64,000 nucleotides of DNA from Acidimicrobiales bacterium (GTDB lineage: Bacteria > Actinomycetota > Acidimicrobiia > Acidimicrobiales > Aldehydirespiratoraceae). Below the pieces are notes generated by a model, which was not told the DNA's origin, made no database searches, and saw only the letters and a list, made by a program, of their open reading frames with translations. The position numbers were made by a program, and so were the translations under genes. Where the stretch lies: NCBI GenBank assembly GCA_040219515.1, contig JAVJSI010000016.1, positions 61,390 to 125,389 of the forward strand, given 5' to 3'. Of the stretch, positions 13,540-47,378 are shown in pieces. Each line of letters starts with the position of its first letter. Within the stretch, counting starts at the first letter, position 1.

Positions 13540-13596
13540 GCTGTTTCAAGCGGTGGCGAGGGCTTCTCGGCATCGCGGAATGTCGAACAGCTCAAC
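13535..13596 (+). terminator. Long imperfect stem-loop at the HNH stop codon
   Basis: Outer arms gttgagctgtt (13535..13545) and aacagctcaac (13586..13596) are perfectly complementary. Inner pairings are gcggtg/catcgc (one G-U) and cgag/ctcg. The structure spans the HNH TGA. Confidence 0.4.
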
Positions 13597-14774: not shown

Positions 14775-14813
14775 GGTCGCCTATGTCCGACGGTCGATTT
14801 ACGTTCGGCCTGG

Positions 14814-15056: not shown

Positions 15057-15159
15057 ATCTGCCTCAGTTCCGTGCGGTCAGGTGCTCATCCGGACGCACT
15101 CTGGCGGAATTGGGTCGACTATGCAATAGTATGCGGACCTATACCTTAGGAGGTGAGTC

Positions 15160-15807: not shown

Positions 15808-15838
15808 CAGCATCAACCGTCAACTTGGGGGCAACGCC

Positions 15839-16978: not shown

Positions 16979-17121
16979 TTGGACACCTGGTGGACACAGG
17001 CCCTCGGGGAAGGTCCGGGACCAACCGTGAACGGACGAGGTCGGGAGGCGTGGACTCCTAGCGGTTCCTCAGGTTTCGGAGCCCTTGAGTTCTGAGAATC
17101 GGCTCCCGTTTCCGAAATCGT

Positions 17122-24177: not shown

Positions 24178-25413
24178 TCAGCAGCCCGAGCCGGGCCGGT
24201 CCGGGACCGAGGGGTCGACCACCTCGATGTGCACGTGCGGCCACGACGGCGATGCGGTGAGGTCATCGACCTGCGAGACGAACGGAAGGACCGTCGCGTG
24301 GTCGCCGATCACCGTTTCGCCGGCGACGACCGTGTCACCCACGGCGGGTCGAAGCCCCTCGAAATGCAGCACCTTGACCTCCCAGCCGGGCCGGTCGGTC
24401 GGTTCGATCACCACGAACTCGTCACGATGGTCGCAATAGAGCGTGTATCCGCCACCGCGGATGACGGTGCCCGTGACCGGCGAGCGGATCTCGTCGGCCG
24501 GGTCGATCACGATGTCGGCCGAAGTGTGGCTGCCGTTTCCCCGACCCCTCGATGCCATCGTGGTGACGGCCACCTCGGTCGGCAGGAGCTCCAGCTGCTG
24601 CGCCCCGTCGTGATTGCTCTCGTGGAAGCCGATCATCTCGACTCGTGCACTCGGGAGACTCAGCGTGAGTGGGCCGACGGTGGCGAAGGGGCCGTAGGCG
24701 GTCTCGGACACCTGTCGCACTGCGTCACCGCCATCGCAGGTCGCCGAGGTGGGATCGACGACGACGCCCGGCCGGCCCTCATGGCGATGGAGGAAGGTCG
24801 CCAGTTGGCCGCGCGTGACGCGGAGATCGGGAGAGAACGTGGTCGCCGAGGTGCCGGTGGTGATGCCCTGTGAGTGCATCCACGAGACGGGTGCGTCCTG
24901 CCACGTCCGGGTGACGTCGACGAAGGGATGCAGAGGTGCGTCGGGCTCTCCCCCCATTCGGTGGAGCATCGCGGCGACTTCGCCCCTGGTGACCAGCGCA
25001 TTCGGCGCATAGGTGGTGGGGGAGGTGCCCACGGTGATGCCCTCGGCGGCGAGCCACGAGACGGCGTCGTGCTGCCAATCGGCGATCACGTCGTCGAACG
25101 GGTGCGGTGCCGGCGCAGCGGGCTCGCCCTCCACCCGCCACAGGAACGCTGCCAGCTGCCCTCGTGTGACGAGCCCGTCGGGGCTGAAGCACGATGGACT
25201 CGTCCCCGTCGTGATGTCGTTGTCGACCATCCACTGGACCGCATCCGTGTAGTACCGGTCGGGTGCAACGTCGCCGAATCCGGCGATCGCACCGGCCGGT
25301 TGCACGACCATCGTCAGCGCCGCGAACACCACCGTGATGGCAAGTCGACGATGGACTCGTCCGCATCGATGCCGATCACCCGAGGTGGCCATCACGGCCG
25401 CCGAACGTAGCAC
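24178..25413 (-). CDS. Secreted protein with three SLH domains + C-terminal M23/LytM-like domain (tentative)
   Basis: Signal-like N-terminus, then 3x F.DV......DAV.W.....IT.G.....F.P...VTRGQ.A.FL.R (SLH). The C-terminus carries WPHVHIEV (HxH) and FHESNHD. Confidence 0.75.
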   Translation of the reverse strand: MLRSAAVMATSGDRHRCGRVHRRLAITVVFAALTMVVQPAGAIAGFGDVAPDRYYTDAVQWMVDNDITTGTSPSCFSPDGLVTRGQLAAFLWRVEGEPAAPAPHPFDDVIADWQHDAVSWLAAEGITVGTSPTTYAPNALVTRGEVAAMLHRMGGEPDAPLHPFVDVTRTWQDAPVSWMHSQGITTGTSATTFSPDLRVTRGQLATFLHRHEGRPGVVVDPTSATCDGGDAVRQVSETAYGPFATVGPLTLSLPSARVEMIGFHESNHDGAQQLELLPTEVAVTTMASRGRGNGSHTSADIVIDPADEIRSPVTGTVIRGGGYTLYCDHRDEFVVIEPTDRPGWEVKVLHFEGLRPAVGDTVVAGETVIGDHATVLPFVSQVDDLTASPSWPHVHIEVVDPSVPDRPGSGC

Positions 25414-25431
25414 CGAAACTCTTGCGCCAGG

Positions 25432-27489
25432 ATGACGCGGTTTCGGTCACGCCCTGCTGTACCTTTCCCGCGCATGCCCTCCCGACCTCGCCCGGCCGCT
25501 CGTCCAAGCGGCCATCGCTCCGCCACCGTCACGGTCGTCCTCGCGCTCTTCGCGACGCTGGTGAGCGTCGTGCCGGTGAGTGGCGCACCAGTCGCCTGTC
25601 CGGCCGGCACCATGGCGTTCGACGACGTTCCCGCCTCGTCGTTCGCGTACGACGACATCGTGTGCATCGAGCGACTGGACATCACCACCGGCACGAGCCC
25701 GACGACCTACTCACCGAGCGATTTCGTGACCCGTGAGCAGATGGCGTCGTTCCTCTCCCGGCTCTACCGGGTCATCAACGGCGAGGCCGCGCCGGTGGCT
25801 GCCACACCGTTCACCGATGTCGCCGCCGACTCCTTTGCCACGCGCGACATCGCCCGGATCTACGGGCTCGGCATCACCACGGGCACGACGGGCACGACGT
25901 ATGCGCCGGAGGACTTCGTGACCCGTGAGCAGATGGCGTCGTTCCTCGCCCGGCTGCGTCGGGTGCTCGAGGGCTATTGCGCCTCACCGGAGAGCCCGTT
26001 CACCGATGTGGCGGACACCTCGTTCGCGAAGCTCGATGTCGCGTGCCTCTACGGCCTGAAGATCACGACCGGCACCACGCCCACGACGTACTCGCCGAAC
26101 GATTTCGTCACGCGGGAACAGATGGCGTCGTTCCTCGCCCGCTTCTACCGGACGGGACGGCGCGACGCGAGCTTCACTCCACGGCCGCCGCGTCCAGGAG
26201 ACCCCGTGGTCCCTCGCAACCCGGTCGACCCCCGCAACCCTGTTGATCCCCGAGACCCGCTGGATCCGCGCAACGTGAGCTGCGCGTTGCGAACCGAGTA
26301 CGTCGATGTGAACGAGGTCGTGACGACCGGCCGTCTCGCCGTGTGGTGGGGCCCGACCGGCGGCGATCTCACCGACATCGCCGACCTCGTGCTCGACGAC
26401 ATGGCGTGGGCGTGGGACGTTGCCACCGACACACTGGGGTTCGATCCGCCGCAGGGTTTCCCCGAGTACTGCACCAACATCTACCTGATCGACACCGGTG
26501 GCGTCACCGACAGCCTGACCGCGGGCTTCGGCGAGGACGTCAACGGCGTCCCGTATGTGAACCTCCCCGTCGGCATCGCCTCGCAGTTCCTCACGACGCC
26601 GCCCGGGCCGAACTCCCAGAGTCAGTACACGACCCACGAGATGATGCACGTCTTCCAGGTCGGTGCGCCGTTCCCGAACAGCGGCGACGCGGCCTGGTAC
26701 TGGGAAGCAGTGGCCGAGTGGTTCGTCGACCGGGTGCACCCCACCGACACCGTCGGCAAGGACTCGATCGGTCAGTATCTGCTGAACCCGCAGCTGCCGC
26801 TCTGGGCCTCCAGGAACAACCAGGGGTCGCCGGCCGGAGAGCTCAGCGTGAGCCGACGCTTCCACGACTACGGGGCCGGCGCCTTCCTCACCTGGCTGAG
26901 CGAGGGCAACGGTGCGACCAGCGCGATCGTCGACTCCTGGGACGACGTGCCGTCCGGCACCCTTCCCCAGGAGTGGCTCTTCGACGAACTGGCTCGCGAC
27001 GGCGAGGACATGGCTGCCTCGTTCGTCGACTTCGCCGCTCACGCGGCGACGGTCGACTTCTCCCGCAATGCTGCGGCGATCCGGAACCATCGCGACGAGG
27101 CTGCGTCGTCCGCGGCGAACGCGGGCGACGTCCACTTCCGGACGGCGACCGTGGGCAATGCCGGCATCGGCTGGACCGGTGCCCCCAGCTCCTTGATTCC
27201 GGGTGCGTGGGCCTACAACGCCATCTCGCTCGCGGCCACGTCGGCCGGCACCTTCTCGGTCGAGATCGACCCTGCGGCCACCGGATCCAAGGGGAGCCGG
27301 TCCGATCTCCGGGGAGTGGCGGTTCGCCAGCGGGGAAACACCCGCACCTACGTCCCGTTGGGCAGTGACGACAAGGCCTCGGTCGCGGTTGTCGCCGGTG
27401 ACGAGCTGTGGCTCGTCGTGGCGAGTGTGCCCGACGTGTTCAGCGGCAACGAGCGCTTCGACTACGACTACCGCTTCGTGAAGTCGTAG
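25432..27489 (+). CDS. Secreted protein with three SLH domains + HExxH(+E) metallopeptidase-like domain
   Basis: 3x SLH (FDDVPASSFAYDDIVCIERLDITTGTSPTTYSP.DFVTREQMASFL), a PRNPVDPRNPVDPRDPLDPRN linker, then TTHEMMHVFQ...WYWEAVAEWF (gluzincin-like). An alternative start is the ATG at 25474. Confidence 0.75.
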   Translation: MTRFRSRPAVPFPRMPSRPRPAARPSGHRSATVTVVLALFATLVSVVPVSGAPVACPAGTMAFDDVPASSFAYDDIVCIERLDITTGTSPTTYSPSDFVTREQMASFLSRLYRVINGEAAPVAATPFTDVAADSFATRDIARIYGLGITTGTTGTTYAPEDFVTREQMASFLARLRRVLEGYCASPESPFTDVADTSFAKLDVACLYGLKITTGTTPTTYSPNDFVTREQMASFLARFYRTGRRDASFTPRPPRPGDPVVPRNPVDPRNPVDPRDPLDPRNVSCALRTEYVDVNEVVTTGRLAVWWGPTGGDLTDIADLVLDDMAWAWDVATDTLGFDPPQGFPEYCTNIYLIDTGGVTDSLTAGFGEDVNGVPYVNLPVGIASQFLTTPPGPNSQSQYTTHEMMHVFQVGAPFPNSGDAAWYWEAVAEWFVDRVHPTDTVGKDSIGQYLLNPQLPLWASRNNQGSPAGELSVSRRFHDYGAGAFLTWLSEGNGATSAIVDSWDDVPSGTLPQEWLFDELARDGEDMAASFVDFAAHAATVDFSRNAAAIRNHRDEAASSAANAGDVHFRTATVGNAGIGWTGAPSSLIPGAWAYNAISLAATSAGTFSVEIDPAATGSKGSRSDLRGVAVRQRGNTRTYVPLGSDDKASVAVVAGDELWLVVASVPDVFSGNERFDYDYRFVKS

Positions 27490-27508: not shown

Positions 27509-28753
27509 GTGGAGGAATCGGGCTGCGTCGCGTCACTCCGCTACCGTCCGCCCGTGTCCGACTCCACCTCGAGCGGGGCGATCCCGCTCCGGCGCGACCC
27601 CAACATTCCGTACTACGTCGTCACCGCGGTGCTCACGATGGGCTACGGATCGGTGTTCACCCTGCTGGCCGAGTTCCGCAACGAGTTCGGGTTCAGTGAG
27701 AGTCAGCTGGGGCTCATCGCATCGGCCGGCTTCTTCGCCGGCTTCGTCGCCCAGGTGGGCCTCGCCCCGCTTGCCGACCGGGGTCGCACGGCGCAGATGA
27801 TCCGCGGTGGGGTCCTGCTCGCCGCCGTGGGGATGCTCGGTATGGTCGTCGCCGATCAGCTGTGGATGTTCGTCGGGTCACGAGTGGTGTTCGGGCTCAG
27901 CACCGGTGCCGTCGCTCCGGCCATGCGCCGGCTCCTCATCACCCGCGACCCGGACGCTGTGGGCACGACGCTGGGCCGGCTCACTGCGTTTGACATCAGC
28001 GGGTTCGTCCTCGGCCCCGTCCTGGCCGCGGTGATGGTGGAGCTGGGCGGCATCAGACTCCCGTTCATCGTTCTCATGGCTGCGAACCTGCTCCTGTTCG
28101 GATGGGTCGGCCGCCTCGACCTGCGCACGCCGCCCGGTGACGGTGTCCGGCGCCCGACTCTGCCGCTGCTGCGAATCCCCCGGATCCAGTCGGCGCTGTT
28201 CGCCGGCGTCGCGTTCTATCTGACCATCGCCTACTTCGAGGCGACCTGGGCGCTCCTCCTCGACGACAATGGGGCCGAGACGTGGTTCATCGGGCTGTCG
28301 TTGAGCCTGTTCACGATCCCGATGATCCTCATCGCGCCGACCGGCGGCCGCATGGCGCAGGCGCGCGGCCACGCGGCGGTGGTCGGCTGGTCGATCTCCG
28401 TCGCGGCGGTCTGCACACTTCTCTACGGCTGGGTCGACGGCCTCTGGATCCTGCTGCTCGTGTCGGTGGTGCACGCCATCGCGGATGCATTCACGATGCC
28501 GGCCAACCAGGTGGCGATCGCGACGGCGACACCGCGCGAACAGCTCGCGGCAGGACAGGGGCTCTTCAGCGCGATCGGCGTGCTCGTGTCGGGCGTGGTC
28601 GCCTATGGTGCCGGTGCGCTCTACGAGGCCGAGGGCCCGAAGTTGCTGTTCACCTCGGCGTCGATGGCAATGATCGTGTTCCTGGGGCTGTCCTTGTGGC
28701 GGCACCGCTCGGCGCCGGTCGCCGAGAGAACGATGCAGGAGGAGAGACTGTGA
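27509..28753 (+). CDS. MFS transporter
   Basis: 414 aa, about 12 hydrophobic helices, with the MFS loop motif GLAPLADRGRTAQ between TM2 and TM3. Confidence 0.85.
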   Translation: MEESGCVASLRYRPPVSDSTSSGAIPLRRDPNIPYYVVTAVLTMGYGSVFTLLAEFRNEFGFSESQLGLIASAGFFAGFVAQVGLAPLADRGRTAQMIRGGVLLAAVGMLGMVVADQLWMFVGSRVVFGLSTGAVAPAMRRLLITRDPDAVGTTLGRLTAFDISGFVLGPVLAAVMVELGGIRLPFIVLMAANLLLFGWVGRLDLRTPPGDGVRRPTLPLLRIPRIQSALFAGVAFYLTIAYFEATWALLLDDNGAETWFIGLSLSLFTIPMILIAPTGGRMAQARGHAAVVGWSISVAAVCTLLYGWVDGLWILLLVSVVHAIADAFTMPANQVAIATATPREQLAAGQGLFSAIGVLVSGVVAYGAGALYEAEGPKLLFTSASMAMIVFLGLSLWRHRSAPVAERTMQEERL

Positions 28754-30984
28754 TCGATCGTCGAGGGTTTCTGGTCGGAGCATCGTCGCTCGCCGCATTG
28801 ACGGCGTGCAGTGGCGGAGGTGGTTCGGGCGATGGCGCGCCGTCGACGACCACCACTGGGACGAGCACGACGTCGACGGTCGCCCCGACGACGACCGGAG
28901 CCGCACCGGCCGCCGGCGGCCTGGCCGCGCCCGGCAGCGCCGGACTCGTCGACGAGAGCTACTTCCAGACGCAGATCGACAGCTATCTCACCTACGCGAC
29001 GGCGTCGCCTCGGCCTGCTTCCGCGTCGGGCGTGGCGGTTCAGCTGGCGGCCGCCCGCCGGGACCCCTCATTCACGTGGGACATCGGCGCGGTCAGCGTC
29101 GAGGGCTTCGCCGATCGCTGGACCCAACTCGACGAGTGGCGTGACACTCGCGACTTCCAGTTCATGTATTTCAACTGGCTGCTCGCGCACGGCCAGGGAA
29201 CTACCGAGATGACCCGCATCGACCCGGCGGTCATCGAGGCGATCACCCAGCGGGTGCTGGCCAACCGCTACCGCTACGACGATCCGCTACCCGCCGACCG
29301 CGTCGACCATCTGTGGTACTGGTCGGAGAACCATCGCATCATCACGCTGTCCAACGAGCTGTTGGCCGGCCAGTTCTTCCCCGACGAGGTGTTCGAGGTC
29401 ACCGGGATGACAGGCGGCGAGCACTGGGCCCGGGCCCGCCCCGAGATCCTCGACTGGATCCACGAACGAGCCGAATTCGGCTTCTTCGAATGGCACTCCA
29501 ACGTGTACATGGCCAAGAACGTCACGCCGCTCCTCTCGTTGTGCGAACTCAGCGACGACGACGAGATCGTGAACGCCGCCGCGATGGGACTCGACCTCTG
29601 CCTCGTCGACATGGCGGCGCACTATCACCGGGGCGCCTACGTGGCGCCGCACGGGCGTACCTACAAGAAGGACAAGATGACCGCCCGCGACGAGGACACC
29701 TTCGACCTGGCGAAACTCCTCTTCGACCGCACGCCGGGCGACCACAGCTCCGTCGACAGCACGACGGCGACGTTCTTCTGTCTCGCCGAGAAGTACCGGC
29801 CACCGGCCGCGGTGATCGCGATCGCCCAGTCCGACGAAGTGTCGATCACCCGCGAGCGCCACGGCATCCATGTCAACAGTCGGGAGCCGATCAGCGATTC
29901 GCCCGAGGCGCCGTTCGGCTACGACTTCAAGGACCCGGCAAACATGGCGTTCTGGTGGTCGGCCGGGCTGATCGGGGTCTGGCAGATGGCCGAGGTGAGC
30001 ACTGCCGAAGCCAATGAACACCGTCTGTGGGAGGGTGATGTCTTCACCCAGATCAAGCAGCTCAGCGACGTGCAGGGCGGCGACGTCGAGAAGATCGAAC
30101 AGTGGCTGCTCGACAACTACATGATCCTCAACCTCGGCGGGCTCGACGAGGCGAACACCTATGCGTGGCGCAGCCCCCAGGTCAGCCTCGCGTCGGTACT
30201 CGATCACCGGAAGGGCCAGATGCGCGATCAGGTGCAGATCTGGCAGGCGACCATCGATCCCGACGCCCGGGTCTTCACCAACCATCCGATGACCGGCCTG
30301 CCCGAGTCGACCGACTGGAGCGACGACGGCGGCGACCCGGGCTACTGGACCGGCGAGGCCTCGATGCCCCGTACCGCCCAGTTCGAGCGGACCGCCATCC
30401 ACATCTACTCACCGCTCTGGGACGAGACGACCGACGAGATCCTCGATCTCGTCTTTCGCTACCGCGACTACACCCACGCCTACTTTCCCCAGGACCACTT
30501 CGACGAGGTACGTCAGGTCGGCAACTGGACGCTGGGGGCGAGGAACGGGGGCTACGTGGCGCTCTGGTCGCAGCGCCCGGCGACGTGGCGAACCTACGAC
30601 CCGGCGGTGCACGCGACGAACGGCATGAGCAAACCCTTCGACCTCGTGGCCGAGGGCGGACCGGACAACGTCTGGATCGTGGAGGTCGGTACGGAAGACG
30701 ACGGGACGTTCGACGAATTCGTCACCGGCGTCACGGCCGACGAGCCGGTGGTGACCGGGACGGGCGAGGTGGACGTCAGGTGGGTGTCGCCGAGCGCGGG
30801 GGAGATGAGCTTCGGCTGGTCTGCGCCGTTCGTGGTGGCCGGCATCGACACGCCGATCGCCGACTTTCCACGGCACGACTCGCCCTGGGGAATCGTCGAG
30901 CGACTCGAGACTCGGCACCGGTTGGCGGCCGGTGATGCAACGCTCGACCTCGATTTCGATGCGATGACCCGAGCGCTCGGCTGA
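28750..30984 (+). CDS. Tat-signal lipoprotein of unknown function (large secreted protein)
   Basis: Trimmed to the GTG at 28750 (VIDRRGFLVGASSLAALTACSGGGG: twin-Arg + lipobox). It overlaps the MFS stop (GTGA). A Thr/Ser-rich linker is followed by ~680 aa in which I recognise no motif. Confidence 0.65.
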   Translation: MIDRRGFLVGASSLAALTACSGGGGSGDGAPSTTTTGTSTTSTVAPTTTGAAPAAGGLAAPGSAGLVDESYFQTQIDSYLTYATASPRPASASGVAVQLAAARRDPSFTWDIGAVSVEGFADRWTQLDEWRDTRDFQFMYFNWLLAHGQGTTEMTRIDPAVIEAITQRVLANRYRYDDPLPADRVDHLWYWSENHRIITLSNELLAGQFFPDEVFEVTGMTGGEHWARARPEILDWIHERAEFGFFEWHSNVYMAKNVTPLLSLCELSDDDEIVNAAAMGLDLCLVDMAAHYHRGAYVAPHGRTYKKDKMTARDEDTFDLAKLLFDRTPGDHSSVDSTTATFFCLAEKYRPPAAVIAIAQSDEVSITRERHGIHVNSREPISDSPEAPFGYDFKDPANMAFWWSAGLIGVWQMAEVSTAEANEHRLWEGDVFTQIKQLSDVQGGDVEKIEQWLLDNYMILNLGGLDEANTYAWRSPQVSLASVLDHRKGQMRDQVQIWQATIDPDARVFTNHPMTGLPESTDWSDDGGDPGYWTGEASMPRTAQFERTAIHIYSPLWDETTDEILDLVFRYRDYTHAYFPQDHFDEVRQVGNWTLGARNGGYVALWSQRPATWRTYDPAVHATNGMSKPFDLVAEGGPDNVWIVEVGTEDDGTFDEFVTGVTADEPVVTGTGEVDVRWVSPSAGEMSFGWSAPFVVAGIDTPIADFPRHDSPWGIVERLETRHRLAAGDATLDLDFDAMTRALG

Positions 30985-33985: not shown

Positions 33986-35023
33986 TCAGCGGCGACGGAT
34001 CTCGATGGTGCCGGCGCCGGCGCTCGTCGACCCGATGGCGGCGGCGCGGTGACCCGACGACTCGAGCGCGAGCAGCACGTCAGCGGCCACCGCCGGATCG
34101 ACGCCGAACAGCAGCCCCCCGGAGGTCTGTGCATCGGCGAGCACGGTGACATCGAGGTCGGTGACCCCGTCGCCGATCTGCAGCCGATCCTCGATCCAGG
34201 CGAGGTTTCGGCCGGTGCCGCCAGGCACCACGCCGGCGGCGGCGAGCTCTGCCGAGCCGTCGATGACGGGCACGGCGTCGACGTCGACCCGGAGGTCGAC
34301 TCCCGACTCCTCGGCCATGCGTCCGCCGTGCCCGAGCAGGCCGAATCCGGTGACATCGGTGGCGCCGGTGGCCCCTGCCTCGACCGCGATTGCCGCGGCG
34401 GCAGCATTGGTGCGGATCATGCTGGCCACGGCCGTGGCGACGATGTCGGGGGCGGCCGCACCGCGCTTGAGCCCGGTGGTGATGATGCCGATGCCGAGTG
34501 GCTTCGTGAGGATCAGTGTCTGGTGGGGCCGTAGGCCTGCGTTGGTCAGCATCCGGTCGGGGTGGACCTCGCCGATGACCGCCATGCCGTACTTGGGTTC
34601 GGGGTCGTCGACGGTGTGGCCGCCGGCGACGACGAAGCCGCTCTCGGCCGCGATGTCGTGCCCGCCCTGGAGAACGTCGCCGAGCAGTTCGGTCGAGAGC
34701 TCCTCGGTGTTCCAGCACACCAGGTTCAGCGCGAGGAGCGGTCGCCCTCCCATCGCGTAGACGTCGCTGACCGCGTTGGCGGCCGCGACGCGGCCCCAGT
34801 CCCGCGCGTCGTCGACCACCGGTGTGATGAAGTCGGCGGTGACCACGAGGGCGCGATCGTCGGCGAGGCGCCACACGGCGGCGTCGTCGCCGGTGAGGGC
34901 GCCCACGAGAAGATCGGGGCTGTCGGTCGGGGAGAGGCGGCGCACGACCTGCGCCAGTTCGCCAGGGGCGAGCTTGCAGCCTCAACCAGCGCCGTGACTG
35001 AACTCGGTGAGTCGACGAGTCAT
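33986..35023 (-). CDS. selD: Selenide, water dikinase SelD, with in-frame UGA (selenocysteine) at 34984..34982
   Basis: The track ORF 33986..34945 is SelD-like (GGHTVDDPEPKYGMAVIG, LTKPLGIGI). Hand translation upstream gives MTRRLTEFSHGAG-TGA-GCKLAPGELAQVVRRLSP in the same frame. SHGAG[C/U]GCK is the SelD active-site loop. The total is 345 aa, and RBS GAGGGGG lies upstream of the ATG at 35023. Confidence 0.9.
34934..34984 (-). promoter_or_regulatory. Candidate bacterial SECIS element following the selD UGA
   Basis: The mRNA reads UGAGGC...[GGCGCA-GGUCG-UGCGCC]GCCUC. The 6-bp apical stem (34955..34939) has a GGUC-containing loop resembling my recollection of the E. coli fdhF SECIS apex. A lower stem GAGGC/GCCUC closes at the UGA. 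Confidence 0.5.
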
Positions 35024-35086
35024 CGTGAGGAACCCCCTCTCCCGCTCGGTGTCCGACCCTCGCACCCTACGTCGTAGGGTGACCGG

Positions 35087-36157
35087 ATGAGCGCGCCAGC
35101 CACCGTCGATTCCCGTCTCCAGACCCGAGTGACCGAACTCTTCGGCGTCGACTATCCGATAGTGCAGACCGGCATGGGCTGGGTGGCCGGAGCGTCGTTG
35201 GTCACCGGCACTGCCGATGCCGGAGGGCTCGGAATCCTGGCCGCGGCCACGATGACCTACGAGGAGATGGTGGCGGCGATCGCCGCGGTGAAGTCGCGCA
35301 CCGACAAGCCGTTCGGCGTCAACATGCGCACCGACGCGGCCGACGTCGAGCAGCGGGTCGATCACCTCATCGCCCAGAAGGTGAAGGTCGCCTCGTTCGC
35401 CCAGGCCCCGCGACCCGACATGGTGAAGAAGCTGAAGGACAACGGTGTGGTCGTGGTGCCGACCGTGGGTGCTCGCCGCCACGCCGAGAAGGTGGCCGAG
35501 TGGGGCGTCGACGCCGTCCTCTGCCAGGGTGCCGAGGGCGGTGGCCACACCGGCACCGTGCCGACCTCACTGCTGCTGCCCGAAGTGCTCGACGCGGTCG
35601 ACATCCCGGTCATCGCGGCCGGTGGTTTCCACGACGGTCGCGGTCTTGCCGCCGCGCTCGCATGGGGTGCCGACGGCATCGCGATGGGCACGCGCTTCCT
35701 GCTCACCGCCGACAGCAAGGTGCCCGACGAGGTCAAGGCCGTCTACCTCGACACACCGGTGACCGGCACGGTGGTGTCGACCGCGATCGACGGCGCGCCA
35801 CAGCGGGTCATCCGGACCGAGGTGATCGAGAACCTCGAGCGCACCGGCCTGCTCAACCTGCCCCGGGCCGGTGTGAACGCCCTCAAGTTCCGAAAGCTCA
35901 CCGACACGTCGATCGGCGACCTGCTGAAGGAGGGCATCAGCATGAAGCGGAATCAGGATCTCACCTGGGCCCAGGTCGCCATGGCCGCCAACGCCGCCAT
36001 GCTCACGCGGGCGACGCTGGTCGAAGGGAAGCTCGAGGTGGGAATCCTGCCCACCGGCCAGTGTGTGGGCGTGGTCGACGACCTCCCCACCTGTGCCGAG
36101 CTGATCGAGCGCATCGCCGCCGAGGCAATCGCCCGTTTCGACACCGTTTGCCCCTAG
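35087..36157 (+). CDS. Nitronate monooxygenase / FabK-like FMN oxidoreductase (NMO family)
   Basis: FGVDYPIVQTGMGWVAGASLV...GGLGILAA...EGGGHTG...IPVIAAGGFHDGRGLAAALAWGADGIAMGTRFL. Confidence 0.9.
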   Translation: MSAPATVDSRLQTRVTELFGVDYPIVQTGMGWVAGASLVTGTADAGGLGILAAATMTYEEMVAAIAAVKSRTDKPFGVNMRTDAADVEQRVDHLIAQKVKVASFAQAPRPDMVKKLKDNGVVVVPTVGARRHAEKVAEWGVDAVLCQGAEGGGHTGTVPTSLLLPEVLDAVDIPVIAAGGFHDGRGLAAALAWGADGIAMGTRFLLTADSKVPDEVKAVYLDTPVTGTVVSTAIDGAPQRVIRTEVIENLERTGLLNLPRAGVNALKFRKLTDTSIGDLLKEGISMKRNQDLTWAQVAMAANAAMLTRATLVEGKLEVGILPTGQCVGVVDDLPTCAELIERIAAEAIARFDTVCP

Positions 36158-36159
36158 TA

Positions 36160-36345
36160 TTCCTCCGTTCCGAGGAGCGAAGTCCGGTGTGATTCCGGCG
36201 CTGTCCCGCAACGGTGATGCCTGTCCGCTTCGGCGGAGGGGATGAGCCCGGTCGCCTCCGACGAGCCACACGAAACGACCCTCGAGGAAGGGACGCTCGT
36301 GCGATGCGGACTCGCTCCTTGTCGCTCGTGCAATTGACCTCGAGC
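36160..36345 (+). promoter_or_regulatory. Cobalamin (B12) riboswitch leader
   Basis: GGAGCGAAGUCCGGUGUGAUUCCGGCGCUGUCCCGCAACGGUGA (core gctgtcccgcaacggt at 36200..36215), a B12-box-like GAGCCCGGUCGCC, then GAGCCACAC and GGAAGGGAC. The 5-prime uuccucc (36160..36166) is complementary to the RBS ggaggaa (36351..36357). A B12 transport/salvage operon lies downstream. Confidence 0.75.
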
Positions 36346-36360
36346 CACAAGGAGGAACCC

Positions 36361-37284
36361 ATGAAACGCAGTCCACTCACGATCCTGCTCGCCCTGCTCG
36401 CCGTGCTGGCGATGCTCGCCGCCGCGTGCGGTGATGACGACGACACCAGCGTCGCCGACGACGAGGTCGCCGACGACGCCGAGGACGGTGCCGGCGCGGA
36501 GGACGGTGCCGGAAACGTCGAGCGCATCGTGTCGCTGTCACCGACCGCGACGGAGATCCTGTTCGCCATCGGCGCGGGTGACCAGGTCGTGGCGGTCGAT
36601 CAGTTCTCCAACCATCCCGCCGATGCCCCGATGACCGATCTCGACGGCTTCTCGGTGAACGTCGAAGCGGTCGCCGAATACGATCCGCAGATCGTCACCA
36701 TGCAGGCGAGCGCGGCCACCGCCGAGCTCGAGGCCCTCGGCATCACCGTGATCGCCCGGGATGCACCGACCGACTTCGACGGCATCTACAGCCAGATCGA
36801 GGAACTCGGCGCCGCCACCGGCCACATGGCCGAGGCAGCCGAGCTCGTCCTGCAGATCCAGACCGACATCGATGCACTCGTGGCGACTGCACCCGACGCA
36901 GAGGGCTTGACCTACTACCACGAGCTCGGCACCGACTACTACAGCGTGAACCGCGATTCGTTCGTGGCCGAGGTCTATGCCCTCTTCGGACTGCAGAGCA
37001 TCGGCGACGAAGCCGACGGCGAGGCGTTCAACGGCTACCTGCCGCTCTCCGAGGAATTCATTCTGGGCGCTGATCCGGACATGATCTTCCTCGCCGACAC
37101 GATCTACGCCGGCCAGACCGCCGAGACGGTTGCCGCGCGACCGGGCTGGGCCGATCTCACGGCGGTCCAGCAGAACGCCGTCGTCGAACTCGATGACGAC
37201 ATCGCATCACGTTGGGGACCGCGGGTCGTCGAGTTCGCCGAGGCCATCGCCGGCGTGCTGGCCGCAGTGGCGGCACCAGCCTGA
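36361..37284 (+). CDS. btuF: ABC transporter periplasmic binding lipoprotein, BtuF/FecB class (cobalamin/siderophore type)
   Basis: Trimmed to MKRSPLTILLALLAVLAMLAAACG (lipobox). RIVSLSPTATEILFAIGAGDQVVAVD is the class III SBP signature. The B12 assignment rests on the riboswitch context. Confidence 0.8.
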   Translation: MKRSPLTILLALLAVLAMLAAACGDDDDTSVADDEVADDAEDGAGAEDGAGNVERIVSLSPTATEILFAIGAGDQVVAVDQFSNHPADAPMTDLDGFSVNVEAVAEYDPQIVTMQASAATAELEALGITVIARDAPTDFDGIYSQIEELGAATGHMAEAAELVLQIQTDIDALVATAPDAEGLTYYHELGTDYYSVNRDSFVAEVYALFGLQSIGDEADGEAFNGYLPLSEEFILGADPDMIFLADTIYAGQTAETVAARPGWADLTAVQQNAVVELDDDIASRWGPRVVEFAEAIAGVLAAVAAPA

Positions 37285-37286
37285 GT

Positions 37287-38357
37287 ATGGGTTCGCCGCG
37301 ACCCGCCGAGGTCCGCGCCGCGGCGCCACAGGGCGCCCGGCTCGGCTTCGGCGCGGTCTCCGCGGGCGTCCTGGCGATCCTCGTGGCGAGTTTCGCCGGC
37401 CTCACGATGGGCCCGGTCGACCTCTCGATCAGCGAGGTTTTTCGCGAACTGGCCGACGGCCTTCCGGGTGTCGATCTCGACTCCGGGCTGTCGAGCACCC
37501 ATCAGGCGATCGTCACGCAGATCCGGTTTCCCCGCGTCGTCCTGGGTCTCATGGTCGGCGCGACGCTGTCGCTGAGCGGGGCCGCCTATCAGGGAGCGTT
37601 CCGCAACCCGCTGGCCGATCCCTATCTGCTCGGCATCGCGGCCGGGGCCGGCCTCGGCGCGACGATCGCGATCACCGAGGGCCTCGGCGATGGTTCGGGG
37701 GTCCTGGACGCCGTCCCGCTCGCGGCCTTCGTCGGGGGTCTCGCGGCGGTGTGGATCTCGTATGTGGCGGGCCACATCGGCGGACGTTCGACGGTGACGC
37801 TGATCCTGGCCGGCGTTGCCGTCGCCAGCTTCCTGACCGCCTGTCAGACCTACGTGCTGCAGGCCAACAGCGACGTGATCCGCGAGGTCTACACGTGGAT
37901 TCTCGGACGGATCGCCACGTCGGGATGGAACGAACCGGCCCTGCTCGCGCCCTACTTCGTCCTCACGACGGTGGTCGTTCTCCGCTACCGGCGCGCCCTC
38001 GACGTGCTGGCCGTGGGCGACGAGGAAGCCGCATCGTTGGGGGTCAACCCGCGACGTGTACGGCTGATCGTGGTGCTCGCGGCGTCGTTGGGCGCCGCCG
38101 CGGCCGTGGCGGTGTCGGGGCTCATCGGGTTCGTCGGCATCATCGTACCCCACACGGTGCGGCTGCTCTTCGGTGCCAGCAACCGCGTGGTTCTGCCGCT
38201 CTCGGTGCTGTTCGGCGCCGCCTTCATGGTGGCCGCCGATCTGCTGGCCCGGATCGTGCTCGAACCGGCCGAGTTGCCGATCGGGGTGGTCACCGCCTTC
38301 ATCGGCGCGCCGTTCTTCGCTCTGGTGCTGCGCGCGAGTCGGCGGGAGGTCTGGTGA
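37287..38357 (+). CDS. btuC: FecCD/BtuC-family ABC permease
   Basis: RFPRVVLGLMVGATLSLSGAAYQGAFRNPLADPYLLGIAAGAGLGA and the C-terminal PIGVVTAFIGAPFF are typical FecCD segments. Confidence 0.9.
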   Translation: MGSPRPAEVRAAAPQGARLGFGAVSAGVLAILVASFAGLTMGPVDLSISEVFRELADGLPGVDLDSGLSSTHQAIVTQIRFPRVVLGLMVGATLSLSGAAYQGAFRNPLADPYLLGIAAGAGLGATIAITEGLGDGSGVLDAVPLAAFVGGLAAVWISYVAGHIGGRSTVTLILAGVAVASFLTACQTYVLQANSDVIREVYTWILGRIATSGWNEPALLAPYFVLTTVVVLRYRRALDVLAVGDEEAASLGVNPRRVRLIVVLAASLGAAAAVAVSGLIGFVGIIVPHTVRLLFGASNRVVLPLSVLFGAAFMVAADLLARIVLEPAELPIGVVTAFIGAPFFALVLRASRREVW

Positions 38358-39130
38358 ACGGCACCCTGACCATCCGCGACCTGTCGGTGGAACTCGGCGG
38401 CACGCCCGTGCTGTCCGGCGTGGACCTCGCGCTCTCCGAGGGGTGCTGGGTCAACGTGATCGGTCCCAACGGCGCCGGGAAGACGACCCTGTTGCGCGCC
38501 ATCCTGGGGGCCGTGTCCTTCAGTGGCGAGATCGCGGTCGGCGACGTACCGGCTCGCGACGCGATGGCCAGAGCTCGGGCAGTGGCCTACGTCCCCCAGA
38601 CACCGGTGATTCCGCCGGGCGTGATGGTCATCGACTACGTGATGCTCGGCCGCACGCCGCACCGCGGCGTTTTCGCCGCCGACTCACTGCGTGACAGAGA
38701 GGTCGCCGGAGCGGTGATCGAGCGACTGGACCTCGGTGGCTTCGCCGAACGCGAGGTGAGCAGTCTGTCGGGCGGTGAGCGCCAGCGAGTGGTGCTGGCC
38801 CGGGCGCTCGCCCAGGAAGCGGCGCTCCTGCTGCTCGACGAACCGACCACCGCGCTCGATCTCGGCCACCAGCAGGACGTGCTCGACCTGGTCGAGGAGT
38901 TGCGGCGAGAGCAGGGACTGACGGTTCTCGCCACACTGCACGACCTCACCCTGGCCGCGCGCTACGGCGACGAGCTCGCCGTGCTGGCCGAGGGCCGCGT
39001 GGTGCAGAGCGGCCCTCCGGCCACCGTCCTCACGCAGGCGCTGATCGCCGCCCACTTCCACGCCAACGTCCGAATCATCGATGATGTCGACGGGCCGGTC
39101 ATCGTTCCGGTCGCCGGTCGACCCACCTGA
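38354..39130 (+). CDS. btuD: ABC transporter ATP-binding protein (BtuD/FecE type)
   Basis: Walker A GPNGAGKTT, signature LSGGERQR, Walker B LLLLDEPT. The GTG start overlaps the permease stop (GTGA). Confidence 0.9.
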   Translation: MNGTLTIRDLSVELGGTPVLSGVDLALSEGCWVNVIGPNGAGKTTLLRAILGAVSFSGEIAVGDVPARDAMARARAVAYVPQTPVIPPGVMVIDYVMLGRTPHRGVFAADSLRDREVAGAVIERLDLGGFAEREVSSLSGGERQRVVLARALAQEAALLLLDEPTTALDLGHQQDVLDLVEELRREQGLTVLATLHDLTLAARYGDELAVLAEGRVVQSGPPATVLTQALIAAHFHANVRIIDDVDGPVIVPVAGRPT

Positions 39131-39139
39131 GGAGCATGC

Positions 39140-39715
39140 ATGTCCACCACCCCCGACGAACCGCTCACTGAGGATCCTCGGCCCGACGGCCTGACCGTGG
39201 CGAAGAGTCTCGTGCTGGTCAACACCGGCGACGGCAAGGGAAAGTCCTCCGCCGCGTTCGGTGTCGCCCTTCGGGCACGGGCGCGGGGCTGGCCGGTGGC
39301 CGTCGTGCAGTTCCTGAAGTCCGAGGACTGGGTCACCGGCGAACAGATGATGGCCGATGAGCTCGGCATGGACTTCTGGTCGCTCGGCGACGGCTTCACA
39401 TGGGACAGCGACGACCTCGCCAAGGACGAGGCCGAGGCCCGCGAGGCCTGGCGTCAGGGCAAGGCGATCGTCGAGGCGGGTGAGCATCGCCTGGTGGTGT
39501 TCGACGAGATTACCTATCCCGTGAACTGGGGATGGATCGACGCCGAGGAGGTGGAGGCGACCTTCCGTGCCCGTCCGGCCAACGTGTCGCTCGTGCTGAC
39601 CGGTCGCGACGCCCCCGAGTGGATGATCGAGCTGGCCGACACCGTCACCGAGATGGTGAAGACCAAGCACGCCTACGACTCGGGTATCGCCGCCAAGAAG
39701 GGCATCGACTTCTGA
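39140..39715 (+). CDS. cobO: Cob(I)yrinic acid a,c-diamide / cob(I)alamin adenosyltransferase
   Basis: VNTGDGKGKSSAAFGVALRARARGWPVAVVQFLK...LVVFDEITYPVNWGWI...LVLTGRDAP...ADTVTEM (CobO/BtuR pattern). Confidence 0.9.
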   Translation: MSTTPDEPLTEDPRPDGLTVAKSLVLVNTGDGKGKSSAAFGVALRARARGWPVAVVQFLKSEDWVTGEQMMADELGMDFWSLGDGFTWDSDDLAKDEAEAREAWRQGKAIVEAGEHRLVVFDEITYPVNWGWIDAEEVEATFRARPANVSLVLTGRDAPEWMIELADTVTEMVKTKHAYDSGIAAKKGIDF

Positions 39716-40248
39716 TGCTGACCCTCCTCACCGGAGGAGCGCGAAGCGGCAAGTCGTCGGCCGCAGTCCGCCTGGCCACGGTGTCGGGTCGCGCGGTCGT
39801 CTACGTCGCCACCGCCGAGGCGGGCGACGACGAGATGGCCGATCGCATCTCCCGCCACCAGGCCGATCGACCGTCCGAGTGGACCACGATCGATGCGCCG
39901 CGAGCGCTGGCGGAGGCCGTACGGACCGTCGACACCCAAGCCGCCGTCATCGTGGACTGCCTGGCCCTGTGGGTCACGAACCTGCTGGATCTGGCCGACG
40001 AGGAGATCCACGAGCGGGCGGCGGCCCTGGCGGGTGCGCTACGCGAGCGACAGGCCGACACGATCGTGGTGACCAACGAGGTCGGTGACGGCATCGTGCC
40101 CGACAACGCCGTGGCCCGGCGGTTTCGCGACGTGCTGGGCACCGTCAACCAGCAGGTCCGGTCGGTCAGCGATCAGGCCTACCTCTGTGTGGCCGGCGGC
40201 GTGATCCCGATCACCGATCTCACCGGACCCGAGGCGGGCCGTGTCTGA
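39715..40248 (+). CDS. cobU: Adenosylcobinamide kinase / adenosylcobinamide-phosphate guanylyltransferase
   Basis: MLTLLTGGARSGKSSAA P-loop, RISRHQADRP, VIVDCLALWVTNLL. The ATG overlaps the cobO stop (TGATG). Confidence 0.9.
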   Translation: MLTLLTGGARSGKSSAAVRLATVSGRAVVYVATAEAGDDEMADRISRHQADRPSEWTTIDAPRALAEAVRTVDTQAAVIVDCLALWVTNLLDLADEEIHERAAALAGALRERQADTIVVTNEVGDGIVPDNAVARRFRDVLGTVNQQVRSVSDQAYLCVAGGVIPITDLTGPEAGRV

Positions 40249-41227
40249 GCTGGAGGCGTTGCTGACGGATCTGCCGGGGCCCGACGCTGCGTCGGCAATG
40301 GCGGTCGGAATCCGTGCGTCGCACGTGCTGCGGCCAACCGGCGTGTTCATGGAACTGGACCGGGTCGCGGCCTGGTTGGCCGGCTGGCAGGGCACGGACG
40401 CGCCCCGTGTCGCACGGCCGCACGCGATCGTCTTCGCCGCCGATCACGGTGTCGCGAGCGAGGGGGTGAGTGCCTACCCGGCATCGGTGACCGCGGTCAT
40501 GGTCGATGCCCTGGCGGAGGGTGCCGCGACGGCGTCGGTGCTGGCCCGCGAGGCAGGGGCGACGCTCGAGGTGGTCGATGTCGGTGTCGGGGAGCCGACC
40601 GGCAACCTCCGGACCGAGTCGGCCATGACCCCGGCGCGGTTCGACGCAGCCATCACGGCCGGTGTCGCGGCCGTCGAACGCTGTGACGCCGACCTGCTCG
40701 TGCTCGGCGAGATGGGCATCGCCAACACCACGGCCGCCGCAGCCGTGGCGGCCGCAGTGGTCGGCGGTGATGCCGCCGACTGGGTCGGACCGGGTACCGG
40801 CGTGGCCGACGAGGTGCTGGCCGGCAAGGTCCGGGTGGTGGCCGATGCCCTGGACCGGGTCGGTCCGGTCGGACCGATCGAGGCACTGCGCGAGCTCGGC
40901 GGCGCGGAGCTGGCGGCGATCGCAGGCGCCACGATGGCGGCGCGTCACCGCCGTCTTCCGATCCTGCTCGACGGTTTCATCGTCGCCGCGGCGGTCGCGC
41001 CACTCGCGGCGGCCGAGCCGGGTGCGCTGCGGCACTGCATCGCCGCGCACCGTTCATCCGAGCCGGGTCACCGCCGTCTGCTCGAGTACCTGGGGATGTC
41101 GCCACTGCTGGACCTCGGCCTTCGACTGGGCGAGGGGAGTGGCGCGCTGGCGGCCGTGCCGTTGGTGCGCATGGCGGCCGCCGCAGTGGTCGATGTGGCG
41201 ACCTTCGAGGAGTGGGGCGTGACGTGA
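40241..41227 (+). CDS. cobT: Nicotinate-nucleotide--dimethylbenzimidazole phosphoribosyltransferase
   Basis: FAADHGVASEGVSAYP, LLVLGEMGIANTTAAAAV, LGLRLGEGSGA. Confidence 0.9.
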   Translation: MSELEALLTDLPGPDAASAMAVGIRASHVLRPTGVFMELDRVAAWLAGWQGTDAPRVARPHAIVFAADHGVASEGVSAYPASVTAVMVDALAEGAATASVLAREAGATLEVVDVGVGEPTGNLRTESAMTPARFDAAITAGVAAVERCDADLLVLGEMGIANTTAAAAVAAAVVGGDAADWVGPGTGVADEVLAGKVRVVADALDRVGPVGPIEALRELGGAELAAIAGATMAARHRRLPILLDGFIVAAAVAPLAAAEPGALRHCIAAHRSSEPGHRRLLEYLGMSPLLDLGLRLGEGSGALAAVPLVRMAAAAVVDVATFEEWGVT

Positions 41228-41970
41228 CGTCGGCTCGCATCGCGTGGTCGTTCCTGACCCGCCTGCCGGGTGGCGCCCATCCGGGCCCGAGCGACTCCAT
41301 GGCGTCGGCGGTCCCGTGGTTCCCGGTCGTCGGACTGGTCCTCGGCGCCGGTCTGGGCGCCGTCTACCTCGGCCTCTTCGAGATCACCTCGCCGACGGTC
41401 GCCGCGCTGGCCACCATCGGTCTCGGCGCGCTCGCAACCGGCGCGTTTCACGAGGACGGGCTGGCCGACACGTTCGACGCGTTCGGCGGCTACGAGCCCG
41501 AGCAGCGTCTCGAGATCATGCGCGACTCGAGGATCGGCACCTTCGGCACGCTGGCGCTCGTGGTGGCGACCGGGCTGAAGGTCGCCGGACTCGCGAGCCT
41601 CGACGGCGCCGACGGACTTGTCGCACTGGTCGTCGCCCACAGCGCGGCGCGCGCCACGGCGTTGCTCGTGATGCGGGCCGGTCCGGACGCGCGGACCGAA
41701 GGACTCGCAGCCAGCGCCACCGACCTTCCTCGCACGGCGGTGGCCGGCGTGGTGGCCGTCACGGCGCTGGCCGGGGTCGGCCTCGGACCGGTGACCGCAA
41801 TTGCGGTCGCCGCCCTGCTCGGCGTCGCCGTCGGTGCCGTGCGGGTCGCGCGGCGTCGATTCGGCGGGACGACCGGCGATGTCCTGGGGGCGGTCGAGCA
41901 GGTGAGCGAGATCGTCGTGCTACTCGTGTGCGCGGAGCTGGTGGGCGAACTGGGCTGGCTGTGGGGCTGA
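41212..41970 (+). CDS. cobS: Adenosylcobinamide-GDP ribazoletransferase (cobalamin synthase)
   Basis: AWSFLTRLP, GAFHEDGLADTFDAFGG and multiple TM helices. The start may be a few codons downstream. Confidence 0.9.
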   Translation: MGRDVTSARIAWSFLTRLPGGAHPGPSDSMASAVPWFPVVGLVLGAGLGAVYLGLFEITSPTVAALATIGLGALATGAFHEDGLADTFDAFGGYEPEQRLEIMRDSRIGTFGTLALVVATGLKVAGLASLDGADGLVALVVAHSAARATALLVMRAGPDARTEGLAASATDLPRTAVAGVVAVTALAGVGLGPVTAIAVAALLGVAVGAVRVARRRFGGTTGDVLGAVEQVSEIVVLLVCAELVGELGWLWG

Positions 41971-42464
41971 CGCTGCGGCTGCTGCGCCACGGCACGACGG
42001 AGTGGACCGAGGCCGGCCGATACTGCGGCCATGCCGACCCCGGTTTGAACGAGACGGGGCGGCTTGCCCTGCGTTCGGTCTGGCTGCCGGAGTCGGTCTA
42101 CCGATCCGTGGTGTGCTCCGACCTCCGACGCTGTCGTGAGACCGCGGCGGCGCTGGGCCTCGCGCCGACGCTCACAGCGGCCCTGCGCGAGTTCGACTTC
42201 GGGGCGATCGAAGGTGCGACCTGGGAGGAACTCGACGACGATGTCAGGACGGCACTGCTCGATCACGACTCGTTCGTGGCCCCCGACGGCGAGTCGGTCG
42301 AGGGGTTCGGCGCCCGGATCGACACGTTCGTCGAAGGACTGGACGATGGCCGACACCTGCTCGTCACCCACGGCGGGGTGATCCAGCACCTGCTTCGCCG
42401 GGCGGGTGTGGACCGCCATGTCGGTCCGGGGGAGTGGGTCGACGTGGAGATCAGCCCCCGCTGA
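41961..42464 (+). CDS. cobC: Histidine-phosphatase-family protein, probable alpha-ribazole phosphatase
   Basis: LRLLRHGTTEWTEAGRYCGHADPGLNETG (RHG motif) in the last position of the cob operon. The start (GTG at 41961, overlapping the cobS stop) is uncertain. Confidence 0.7.
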   Translation: MGLTLRLLRHGTTEWTEAGRYCGHADPGLNETGRLALRSVWLPESVYRSVVCSDLRRCRETAAALGLAPTLTAALREFDFGAIEGATWEELDDDVRTALLDHDSFVAPDGESVEGFGARIDTFVEGLDDGRHLLVTHGGVIQHLLRRAGVDRHVGPGEWVDVEISPR

Positions 42465-46760: not shown

Positions 46761-47378
46761 GTGAGCCCCGACGAACCGCCGCCGCGAGACCGCCAGATCG
46801 GCATCTTCGAGGATCGGATCGTCACGGTTCCCAACCTCATCTCGCTGGCCCGCCTCGCCTGCATCCCCGTGTTTCTCTGGCTGCTGTTCAGCGAAGACGA
46901 CCGCCTGGGCGCGGCACTCCTGTGGGCCGTCGTCGGCGCCACCGACTGGGTCGACGGATGGTGGGCCCGGAAGTTCGACGTGGTCAGCGAGTTCGGGAAG
47001 CTGATCGACCCGGTGACCGACCGGGCGGTGTTGATCGTGGGTGTGTTCGCGGTCGGGGTCGACGGGTCGGTGCCGTGGTGGTTGGTCGGCCTCACGCTCG
47101 CCCGCGAAGTGCTCGTGGCCATCGCGGGCGTCGTGCTCGGGGCACTCGGTGCCCGCCGCATCGACGTCACGTGGTGGGGCAAGTGCGCGACCTTCGGCCT
47201 GTATTTCGCCTTCCCACTGCTGCTCGGCGGCGCGTCGGATGCGGGTGTCGCCGATGCCCTCCGCTGGGCCGGGTGGGCCTGTGCGATACCCTCGCTGATC
47301 TACTCCTACCTCTCGGCCGCGCAGTACATCCCTCTCGGACTCACGGCGCTGCGCGAAGGTCGTCTCGACCGGGCCTAG
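46761..47378 (+). CDS. CDP-alcohol phosphatidyltransferase (PgsA/cardiolipin synthase type)
   Basis: GATDWVDGWWARKFDVVSEFGKLIDPVTDR matches DG(x)2AR(x)8G(x)3D(x)3D. GTG start. Confidence 0.85.
   Translation: MSPDEPPPRDRQIGIFEDRIVTVPNLISLARLACIPVFLWLLFSEDDRLGAALLWAVVGATDWVDGWWARKFDVVSEFGKLIDPVTDRAVLIVGVFAVGVDGSVPWWLVGLTLAREVLVAIAGVVLGALGARRIDVTWWGKCATFGLYFAFPLLLGGASDAGVADALRWAGWACAIPSLIYSYLSAAQYIPLGLTALREGRLDRA

Follow-up and report, generated by a model that had tools for sequence, protein, structure and literature searches.

A predicted selenocysteine codon in the selD gene of an Acidimicrobiales bacterium, followed by covarying hairpins

How should a gene be read when an in-frame UGA stands between its N-terminal part and the remainder of its coding sequence (CDS)? 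The question is raised by positions 33986..35023 (minus strand) of a 64,000-nucleotide stretch of DNA from an Acidimicrobiales bacterium (GenBank assembly GCA_040219515.1, contig JAVJSI010000016.1), referred to below as the window. An earlier, sequence-only reading of the window took this gene to be selD, which encodes selenophosphate synthetase, with the UGA decoded as selenocysteine (Sec) and a hairpin resembling a selenocysteine insertion sequence (SECIS) downstream. From the sequence comparisons described here, the gene is very probably a full-length selD whose product is itself a predicted selenoprotein, with Sec placed at the UGA under the direction of a SECIS.

The complete CDS, on the minus strand, specifies 345 amino acids, Sec14 included, plus the stop (selenide, water dikinase; assigned by translation, hidden Markov model (HMM) scoring and structure match). 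It begins with an ATG at 35023..35021 that opens the frame MTRRLTEFSHGAG, 13 codons long, before the in-frame TGA at 34984..34982. Directly after this codon the same frame reads GCKLAPGELAQVVRRL, the UGA being followed by GCKLAPGEL, and the frame past the TGA continues as GCKLAPGELAQVV to the terminal TGA at 33988..33986. A purine-rich, Shine-Dalgarno-like run, GGGAGAGGGGG, can be read directly from the sequence at 35033..35043 (minus strand), 9 nt 5' of the ATG. In the closest relatives, the conserved peptide begins at the position that aligns with this start Met, and one of these relatives (L002) has in-frame stops just 5' of it. In a listing of open reading frames (ORFs) the gene gives rise to two artefacts: a 319-aa ORF that starts from the GTG at 34945, and one of 188 aa (34982..35548) that ends in the 13 residues of the true SelD N-terminus. 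The sequence-only reading had described this pair as a truncated SelD from 34945 and a spurious minus-strand ORF, and both are recovered exactly. Its statement that reading through the TGA restores 345 aa is likewise confirmed by translation to the stop at 33986. The upstream peptide is in frame as it had said, but the peptide has 13 residues rather than the 14 that it had counted before the UGA.

The terminal UGA at 33986..33988 (minus strand) has no SECIS behind it. Among the 35 Pfam-supported genes of the window that were checked, 30 (selD included) use TGA as their stop; thus, recoding at 34984..34982 would be specific to that site, and not the product of a variant genetic code. One gene would therefore show two uses of UGA, as Sec once and as stop once.

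For scoring with HMMs, the UGA-encoded residue of the full protein was replaced by Cys. The identity of the gene is established by the scores that result: 368.5 bits with the SelD equivalog TIGR00476 (cutoff 125) and 352.6 bits with NF002098 (cutoff 299). In a search of solved structures, the protein matches E. coli SelD (PDB 3U0O) with E = 3e-77. The alignment also establishes the position of the UGA, as SHGAG-U-GCK matches SHGAG-C17-GC-K20 of 3U0O residue for residue, with Sec14 as the counterpart of Cys17 and Lys17 that of Lys20. Both the name of the gene and the placing of the UGA at the Cys/Sec position of the N-terminal SHGAG-U-GCK loop had been proposed earlier, and both are borne out by these matches. 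The domains, precomputed for the identical 319-aa product (P0001), are the PurM-like pair PF00586 (AIRS) and PF02769 (AIRS_C).

Whether the TGA is genuine can be addressed by looking at the same codon elsewhere. Species-representative genomes were scanned for selD, which gave 80 loci, and the homologous codon was located in each. It is TGA in 28 of these loci and TGC or TGT in 50 others. All 17 of the Acidimicrobiia loci recovered (L001-L015, L021 and L022, at 63-78% identity) have TGA, and the 11 further TGA loci come from Gaiellales, other metagenome-assembled genomes (MAGs) of Actinomycetota, Gemmatimonadota, Myxococcaceae and one deltaproteobacterial MAG. The 50 TGC/TGT loci belong to Pseudonocardia, Mycobacterium, Kocuria, Streptomyces, Bacteroidota and others. 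Beyond the genome loci, TGA is found on four contigs: one of 49.7 kb in Logan (SRR26147846_25930), which carries an identical selD gene, and three of 3.7 Mb, 5.16 Mb and 94 kb in ENA, of which the two largest (ERZ21861969 ctg21616c, 3.73 Mb, and ERZ25766185 contig_1) hold syntenic Sec-type copies. The sequence-only reading had named a sequencing error from TGC to TGA as a possibility to be checked, and had proposed an alignment with Sec- and Cys-type SelD. In that alignment, TGA (29 sequences with the window) and TGC/TGT (50 sequences) occupy the same codon, and in all TGA recurs there in 32 other loci.

The surroundings of the codon are as informative as the codon itself. Wherever the codon is TGA, the peptide RLTxFSHGAG that precedes it is kept in frame with the downstream part of the protein, and its codon variation is confined to third positions (GGC/GGT/GGA and GCT/GCC/GCG). 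Such variation is the signature of translation through the UGA codon, which is in this way established for the group. Public protein records give a different picture of the gene: among the 120 best hits in a collection of 5.8 billion proteins, 113 cover at most 92% of the query and are without the N-terminus (most have 317-321 aa), and the other seven, which are near full length, are Cys forms with 65-68% identity. Two Cys-type proteins with 67-68% identity, P0115 and P0092, retain the Sec-type peptide after the Cys (CKLAPGEL and CKLAPAAL, respectively). They may be recent conversions from Sec to Cys that keep remnants of SECIS-encoded sequence.

For the RNA structure, 69 nt around the UGA were aligned from 29 Sec-type sequences (the window plus the 28 genome loci), and base pairs were counted for three helices. 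Fifty Cys-type homologues, which are similar in G+C content and code for the same enzyme, served as the control set. All three helices lie on the minus strand. The proximal hairpin, HP1 (34957..34973; G-CUCGCC / CCU / GGCGA-A-C), pairs 34973..34967 with 34963..34957 and encodes K-LAPGE-L. The distal hairpin, HP2 (34938..34956; U-GGCGCA / GGUCG / UGCGCC-G), pairs 34955..34950 with 34944..34939, and its apex is the candidate binding site for SelB. The third helix is the outer pairing that the sequence-only reading had proposed (34934..34983), in which GAGGC at 34983..34979 meets GCCUC at 34938..34934. HP1 begins 8-9 nt 3' of the UGA, and the base and loop of HP2 are 26 and 32 nt 3' of it. In the window, the minimum free energy (MFE) is -11.6 kcal/mol for HP2 and -7.6 kcal/mol for HP1.

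Both hairpins are conserved as pairings, with compensatory substitutions, in the 29 Sec-type sequences. In HP2, 97.7% of the alignment cells are paired and four of the six pairs have changes on both sides; the stem variants include GGCUCA/UGAGCC, GGCCCA/UGGGCC and CGCGCA/UGCGCG. The corresponding values for HP1 are 86.7% and five of seven pairs, and here the compensatory changes show up as coupled amino-acid swaps (LAPGE, LGPAE, IAPGD and IRPAD). For the structure as a whole, none of 500 column shuffles reaches the observed values, and sliding the 3' partners by 1-3 columns lowers pairing to 34-47%. RNAalifold recovers HP1 and HP2 independently. The control set places the hairpins with the TGA codon: complete HP2 is present in 27/29 Sec-type sequences versus 0/50 Cys-type ones, and HP1 with at least six of its seven pairs in 20/29 versus 1/50. 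The mean MFE of the HP2 segment is -11.6 kcal/mol in the Sec-type set (n=29) compared with -4.5 kcal/mol in the Cys-type set (n=50). All 29 Sec-type sequences have G-U at positions 2-3 of the HP2 loop (G34948 and U34947 in the window), compared with 19 of the 50 Cys-type sequences. The covariation establishes the two hairpins and supports HP2 as a bona fide bacterial SECIS.

The outer stem was considered as a conserved feature and rejected. Only 60.7% of its cells are paired; although three of its five pairs have changes on both sides, three of the five are unpaired in 16-19 of the 29 sequences, and the GAGGC/GCCUC pairing is limited to the window and its closest relatives. Of the hairpin described in the sequence-only reading, the inner GGCGCA-GGUCG-UGCGCC part is therefore upheld as covarying and Sec-specific, whereas the outer part is present in the sequence but not conserved. 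HP1 had no place in that description, although it is conserved; within the SECIS it probably serves as a spacer or auxiliary stem.

In the published consensus for bacterial SECIS (bSECIS) elements (PMC13188914, after Zhang & Gladyshev 2005), the apical loop has 3-9 nt and the upper stem 4-16 bp, the first two loop positions contain a G, after which comes G or U, the loop lies 16-37 nt from the UGA, and the MFE is at most -7.5 kcal/mol. HP2 agrees with it on every count (loop GGUCG of 5 nt; stem of 6 bp and a further U-G pair; distance 32 nt; MFE -11.6 kcal/mol). The SECIS of E. coli fdhF can also be compared with HP2; the sequence used for it is 100% identical to fdhF in at least 5413 E. coli records. 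Both are hairpins in the coding region 3' of the UGA, with a loop G-U and similar apices (GCA-GGUC-UGC in fdhF, GCA-GGUCG-UGC in the window). However, the fdhF element has a bulged U in the 5' arm of its upper stem (GGUUGCA/UGCACC), whereas the 6 bp of HP2 form an uninterrupted helix; the base and loop of the fdhF hairpin are 11 and 18 nt from the UGA, in place of 26 and 32 nt; and fdhF has a lower stem where the window has the separate conserved hairpin HP1. The resemblance to fdhF that had been noted from the sequence therefore holds for the shared GCAGGUC...UGC apex, but the missing bulge and the 26-nt versus 11-nt spacing set HP2 apart from a strict fdhF-type element.

That the base of HP2 lies 26 nt from the UGA, and not 11 nt as in the E. 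coli paradigm, is one of several points that weigh against a SECIS and Sec at this site. Another is that the 66-nt fold of the single sequence is not exceptionally stable (z = -1.37); what lifts HP2 above chance is the comparative evidence (97.7% pairing, 0/500 shuffles, 27/29 versus 0/50). No SECIS match was obtained from Rfam, either in a gathering-threshold search of the 64-kb window or at E values up to 10 on 34880..35040; the Rfam SECIS models have been found to be poor for bacterial SECIS elements (bioRxiv 10.64898/2026.04.03.716425). The remaining points concern the decoding machinery. No tRNA-Sec was found in the window by ARAGORN, which reports only a tRNA-Pro, or by the Rfam gathering search, and no SelA or SelB domains are present among the 49 window proteins scanned with Pfam. 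A tblastn search with E. coli SelA and SelB queries, which serves as a lead only, gave neither selA nor selB anywhere in the window or the Sec-type loci. In the 10-kb flanks of selD, none of the 28 Sec-type genome loci showed selA, selB or tRNA-SeC.

The same tools do find the machinery in other places. By tblastn, selA and selB are found beside Cys-type selD in about 29 of the 50 loci, all of them in Actinomycetota, and ARAGORN finds tRNA-SeC in 8/8 scanned loci that have selA/selB beside a Cys-type selD. With the searches empty near Sec-type selD while these controls worked, it can be concluded that the machinery is not linked to selD in this lineage. The split is a clean one: clustered machinery accompanies only some of the Cys-type selD loci and none of the 28 Sec-type ones, and the difference between clustered and dispersed arrangements is probably phylogenetic. 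A dispersed arrangement is documented in Actinomarina: in each of its 84 complete genomes, the genes selA, selB, selC and selD occupy separate sites, and in about half of them selD encodes a selenoprotein (bioRxiv 10.64898/2026.04.03.716425). We infer that selA, selB and selC are present elsewhere in this genome.

Other explanations of the UGA can be weighed against this evidence. If the TGA were a true stop, the product would be the 319-aa protein from GTG 34945, as ORF finders and public gene calls have it, and the 13 upstream codons would be an untranslated leader. Such a protein would be without the whole glycine-rich loop that bears the catalytic Cys/Sec and Lys, equivalent to Cys17 and Lys20 of E. 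coli, and E. coli SelD mutants at these two residues are inactive. Moreover, the 13 codons are kept as protein, in frame and with synonymous variation, in at least four phyla, and GTG 34945 lies inside the conserved HP2, where it spans the last loop base and the two bases that open the 3' arm and is merely an invariant Val codon. The chance that the protein begins there is very slim. TGC and TGA are one base apart, and Cys-type relatives exist at 65-68% identity, which could suggest an error of sequencing or assembly, or else a recent inactivating mutation that has made selD a pseudogene. Here the same TGA in many loci, with in-frame conservation on both sides, excludes a sequencing error or a private pseudogene: the codon occurs in 28 separately deposited assemblies and four contigs from several phyla, it is accompanied by TGA-specific hairpins with compensatory substitutions that none of the 50 Cys forms has, and elsewhere the gene is undamaged, with the score of a full equivalog. 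We accord these possibilities next to no weight.

The failure to find Sec machinery in the window or beside any Sec-type relative would be accounted for if the UGA were read by a standard amino acid, for example through near-cognate Trp or Cys decoding stimulated by RNA structure, in the way that SECIS-independent read-through has been proposed for insect SPS1-UGA; stem-loops adjoining the UGA can indeed promote Sec-independent read-through in eukaryotic SPS genes (PMC4561486). However, the UGA falls exactly at the catalytic Cys/Sec position, where Trp would not support catalysis, the hairpin, with its invariant loop G-U, conforms to the bSECIS consensus of SelB type, and complete Actinomarina genomes have Sec-form selD together with selA, selB and selC (bioRxiv 10.64898/2026.04.03.716425). 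Decoding by a standard amino acid is thus highly improbable as the main use of this codon, although at a low level it could help to bootstrap the loop, described below, in which SelD depends on itself. If Sec is inserted, the roles of the two hairpins might still be exchanged, with HP1 bound by SelB and HP2 an accessory or stabilizing stem. HP1 is also Sec-specific and covarying, and it starts 8-9 nt after the UGA, not far from the 11 nt at which the minimal fdhF element of E. coli is placed. On the other hand, its loop is CCN, with no conserved G or U in the first positions, and so fails the bSECIS loop criterion (PMC13188914), whereas HP2 has the invariant G-U and the fdhF-like GCAGGUC apex and is the better conserved of the two (97.7% versus 86.7% paired). 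We consider the exchange unlikely.

With Sec insertion directed by HP2 as the preferred explanation, the following course of events can be proposed. Translation would start from the ATG at 35023, and the ribosome would meet the UGA at codon 14, with the SECIS (HP1 and HP2) contained in the next 50 nt of the CDS. The complex of SelB, GTP and Sec-tRNA(Sec) would bind the apex of HP2, so that Sec is inserted at the UGA in place of termination, while HP1, situated where the mRNA entrance of the ribosome would lie, would most likely act as a folded spacer or auxiliary stem. After Sec insertion, elongation would go on to the ordinary UGA stop at 33986. As the counterparts of E. coli Cys17 and Lys20, Sec14 and Lys17 in the glycine-rich N-terminal loop would take part in the synthesis of selenophosphate from selenide and ATP. 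The synthesis of Sec-tRNA(Sec) by SelA requires selenophosphate; thus, full-length SelD would depend on its own product and on the selenium supply. The gene would in this way be autoregulated by a positive feed-forward loop, and only the 13-residue peptide would be made when selenium is lacking. The idea of autoregulation in Sec-SelD has been traced to Guimaraes et al. 1996 (according to bioRxiv 10.64898/2026.04.03.716425).

A more specific proposal can be made about the RNA, namely that HP1 and HP2 form one bipartite SECIS common to the Sec-type selD genes of Acidimicrobiia, Gemmatimonadota, Myxococcaceae and a deltaproteobacterial lineage, with HP1 required as the folded spacer that brings HP2 to the mRNA entrance. 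We put this forward tentatively and regard it as rather doubtful. Were it true, RNA pairing would dictate the coupled swaps among LAPGE, LGPAE, IAPGD and IRPAD, and RNA structure would be constraining the protein near its active site. Even then it would be an extension and not a new principle, since tandem two-stem models of the SelD bSECIS exist for Clostridiales. Two-stem SelD models have in fact been drawn for Clostridiales, Campylobacter, Deltaproteobacteria and Pasteurellales (PMC4561486, Supplement S6); the window hairpins are in tandem, as in Clostridiales, in contrast to the proteobacterial SelD models, which are nested (PMC4561486, Supplement S6).

The reading of this locus is correct and well supported, though the arrangement is not new. 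Among bacterial selenoproteins, FdhA and SelD have the widest distribution (PMC1794560), with Sec-containing SelD in second place among the families, and Sec is encoded by 19% of prokaryotic SelD genes (PMC4561486). Earlier listings of Sec-type SelD include Actinobacteria, for example Rubrobacter xylanophilus (PMC1794560), and it has been reported in Acidimicrobiia (bioRxiv 10.64898/2026.04.03.716425). The Sec-containing members of the family (SelD of Haemophilus influenzae, Aquifex aeolicus and Clostridia, and mammalian SEPHS2, an SPS2) have their UGA at the same position of the catalytic loop, likewise with a SECIS inside the CDS directly 3' of the UGA, and share the self-dependence on selenophosphate. 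The window differs from them in its lineage, the uncultured Acidimicrobiales, and in a hairpin sequence particular to the group of Acidimicrobiia, Gemmatimonadota and Myxococcaceae. Closer still is the Sec-form selD of Actinomarina, which is in the same class (Acidimicrobiia) and encodes a selenoprotein of 342-346 aa with an MRLT-type N-terminus (bioRxiv 10.64898/2026.04.03.716425). Actinomarina belongs to another order, however, and has genomes of about 1.1 Mb, whereas the window has 68% G+C and its relatives are on contigs of 3.7-5.2 Mb. The Cys-type SelD proteins of actinomycetes (Pseudonocardia, Mycobacterium and Kocuria, among others) are orthologues with 50-63% identity and the loop SHGAG-C-GCK; they differ in having TGC or TGT at the codon and complete HP2 in 0/50, and selA and selB flank selD in many of their loci.

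What the locus adds is first of all of use for annotation. Gene callers routinely render this arrangement as a shortened gene; public calls for selD here and in most close relatives are truncated at the N-terminus, and the protein ought to be entered as a selenoprotein of 345 aa. The organism becomes a predicted user of selenocysteine, for which selA, selB and selC, and probably further selenoproteins, are predicted elsewhere in the genome, and one more Acidimicrobiales lineage is added to the known distribution of Sec-type SelD. The covariation set (29 Sec-type versus 50 Cys-type sequences) could seed a covariance model of the bacterial SelD SECIS, of which Rfam has none. The understanding of selenium biology is unchanged by the finding.

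The gene is part of a syntenic chromosomal block (GCV_T, MerR, BFN, CDP-OH transferase, Maf, Dus, cob genes, NMO and selD) that is shared with relatives on Mb-sized contigs. Of the genes near selD, these relatives share only the NMO gene upstream and the Maf-Dus-cob block; the downstream GT2 gene is not syntenic in them. The selD neighbourhood in the window includes no selenium-related gene and none that hints at a particular use of selenophosphate. Two scans of the window for in-frame TGA codons, one based on G+C content at third codon positions (GC3) on both sides and the other on a bSECIS-like hairpin 16-37 nt 3', both recovered selD and yielded no other convincing selenoprotein gene.

Several other features of the window can be mentioned. 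Beyond the NMO gene, which diverges from selD, a cobalamin riboswitch (RF00174, 33.4 bits, 36138-36273) stands ahead of a cluster for B12 uptake and salvage (36138-42464, plus strand), whose genes encode a Peripla_BP_2 protein, a FecCD permease, an ABC ATPase, a CobO/BtuR adenosyltransferase, CobU, CobT (DBI_PRT), CobS and a His_Phos_1 protein (CobC-like). A probable integrated island at 8481-17000 adjoins tRNA-Pro(GGG) (8481-8556) and has a G+C content of 0.62-0.65 compared with 0.67-0.69. It holds a HATPase_c_3 protein (9563-11443) with a weak PADLOC match to MzaB, a strong DruA/DUF4338 protein of Druantia type (11498-13321; PADLOC, 374 bits), beside which no other Druantia components were identified, and, at the far end, a tyrosine integrase (15839-16975). 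Two long ORFs, of 900 aa (28282-30981) and 728 aa (59664-61850), have no match in Pfam or PADLOC. Two divergent proteins with S-layer homology (SLH) domains, one of them with DUF6055, are encoded in 24178-27489. Finally, a protein of 1429 aa (47375-51664, minus strand) begins with an HD_5/HD domain (an HD-GYP-like phosphohydrolase) followed by many Big_9 and cadherin-like repeats, so that a signalling domain that is usually cytoplasmic is joined to repeats of extracellular type.

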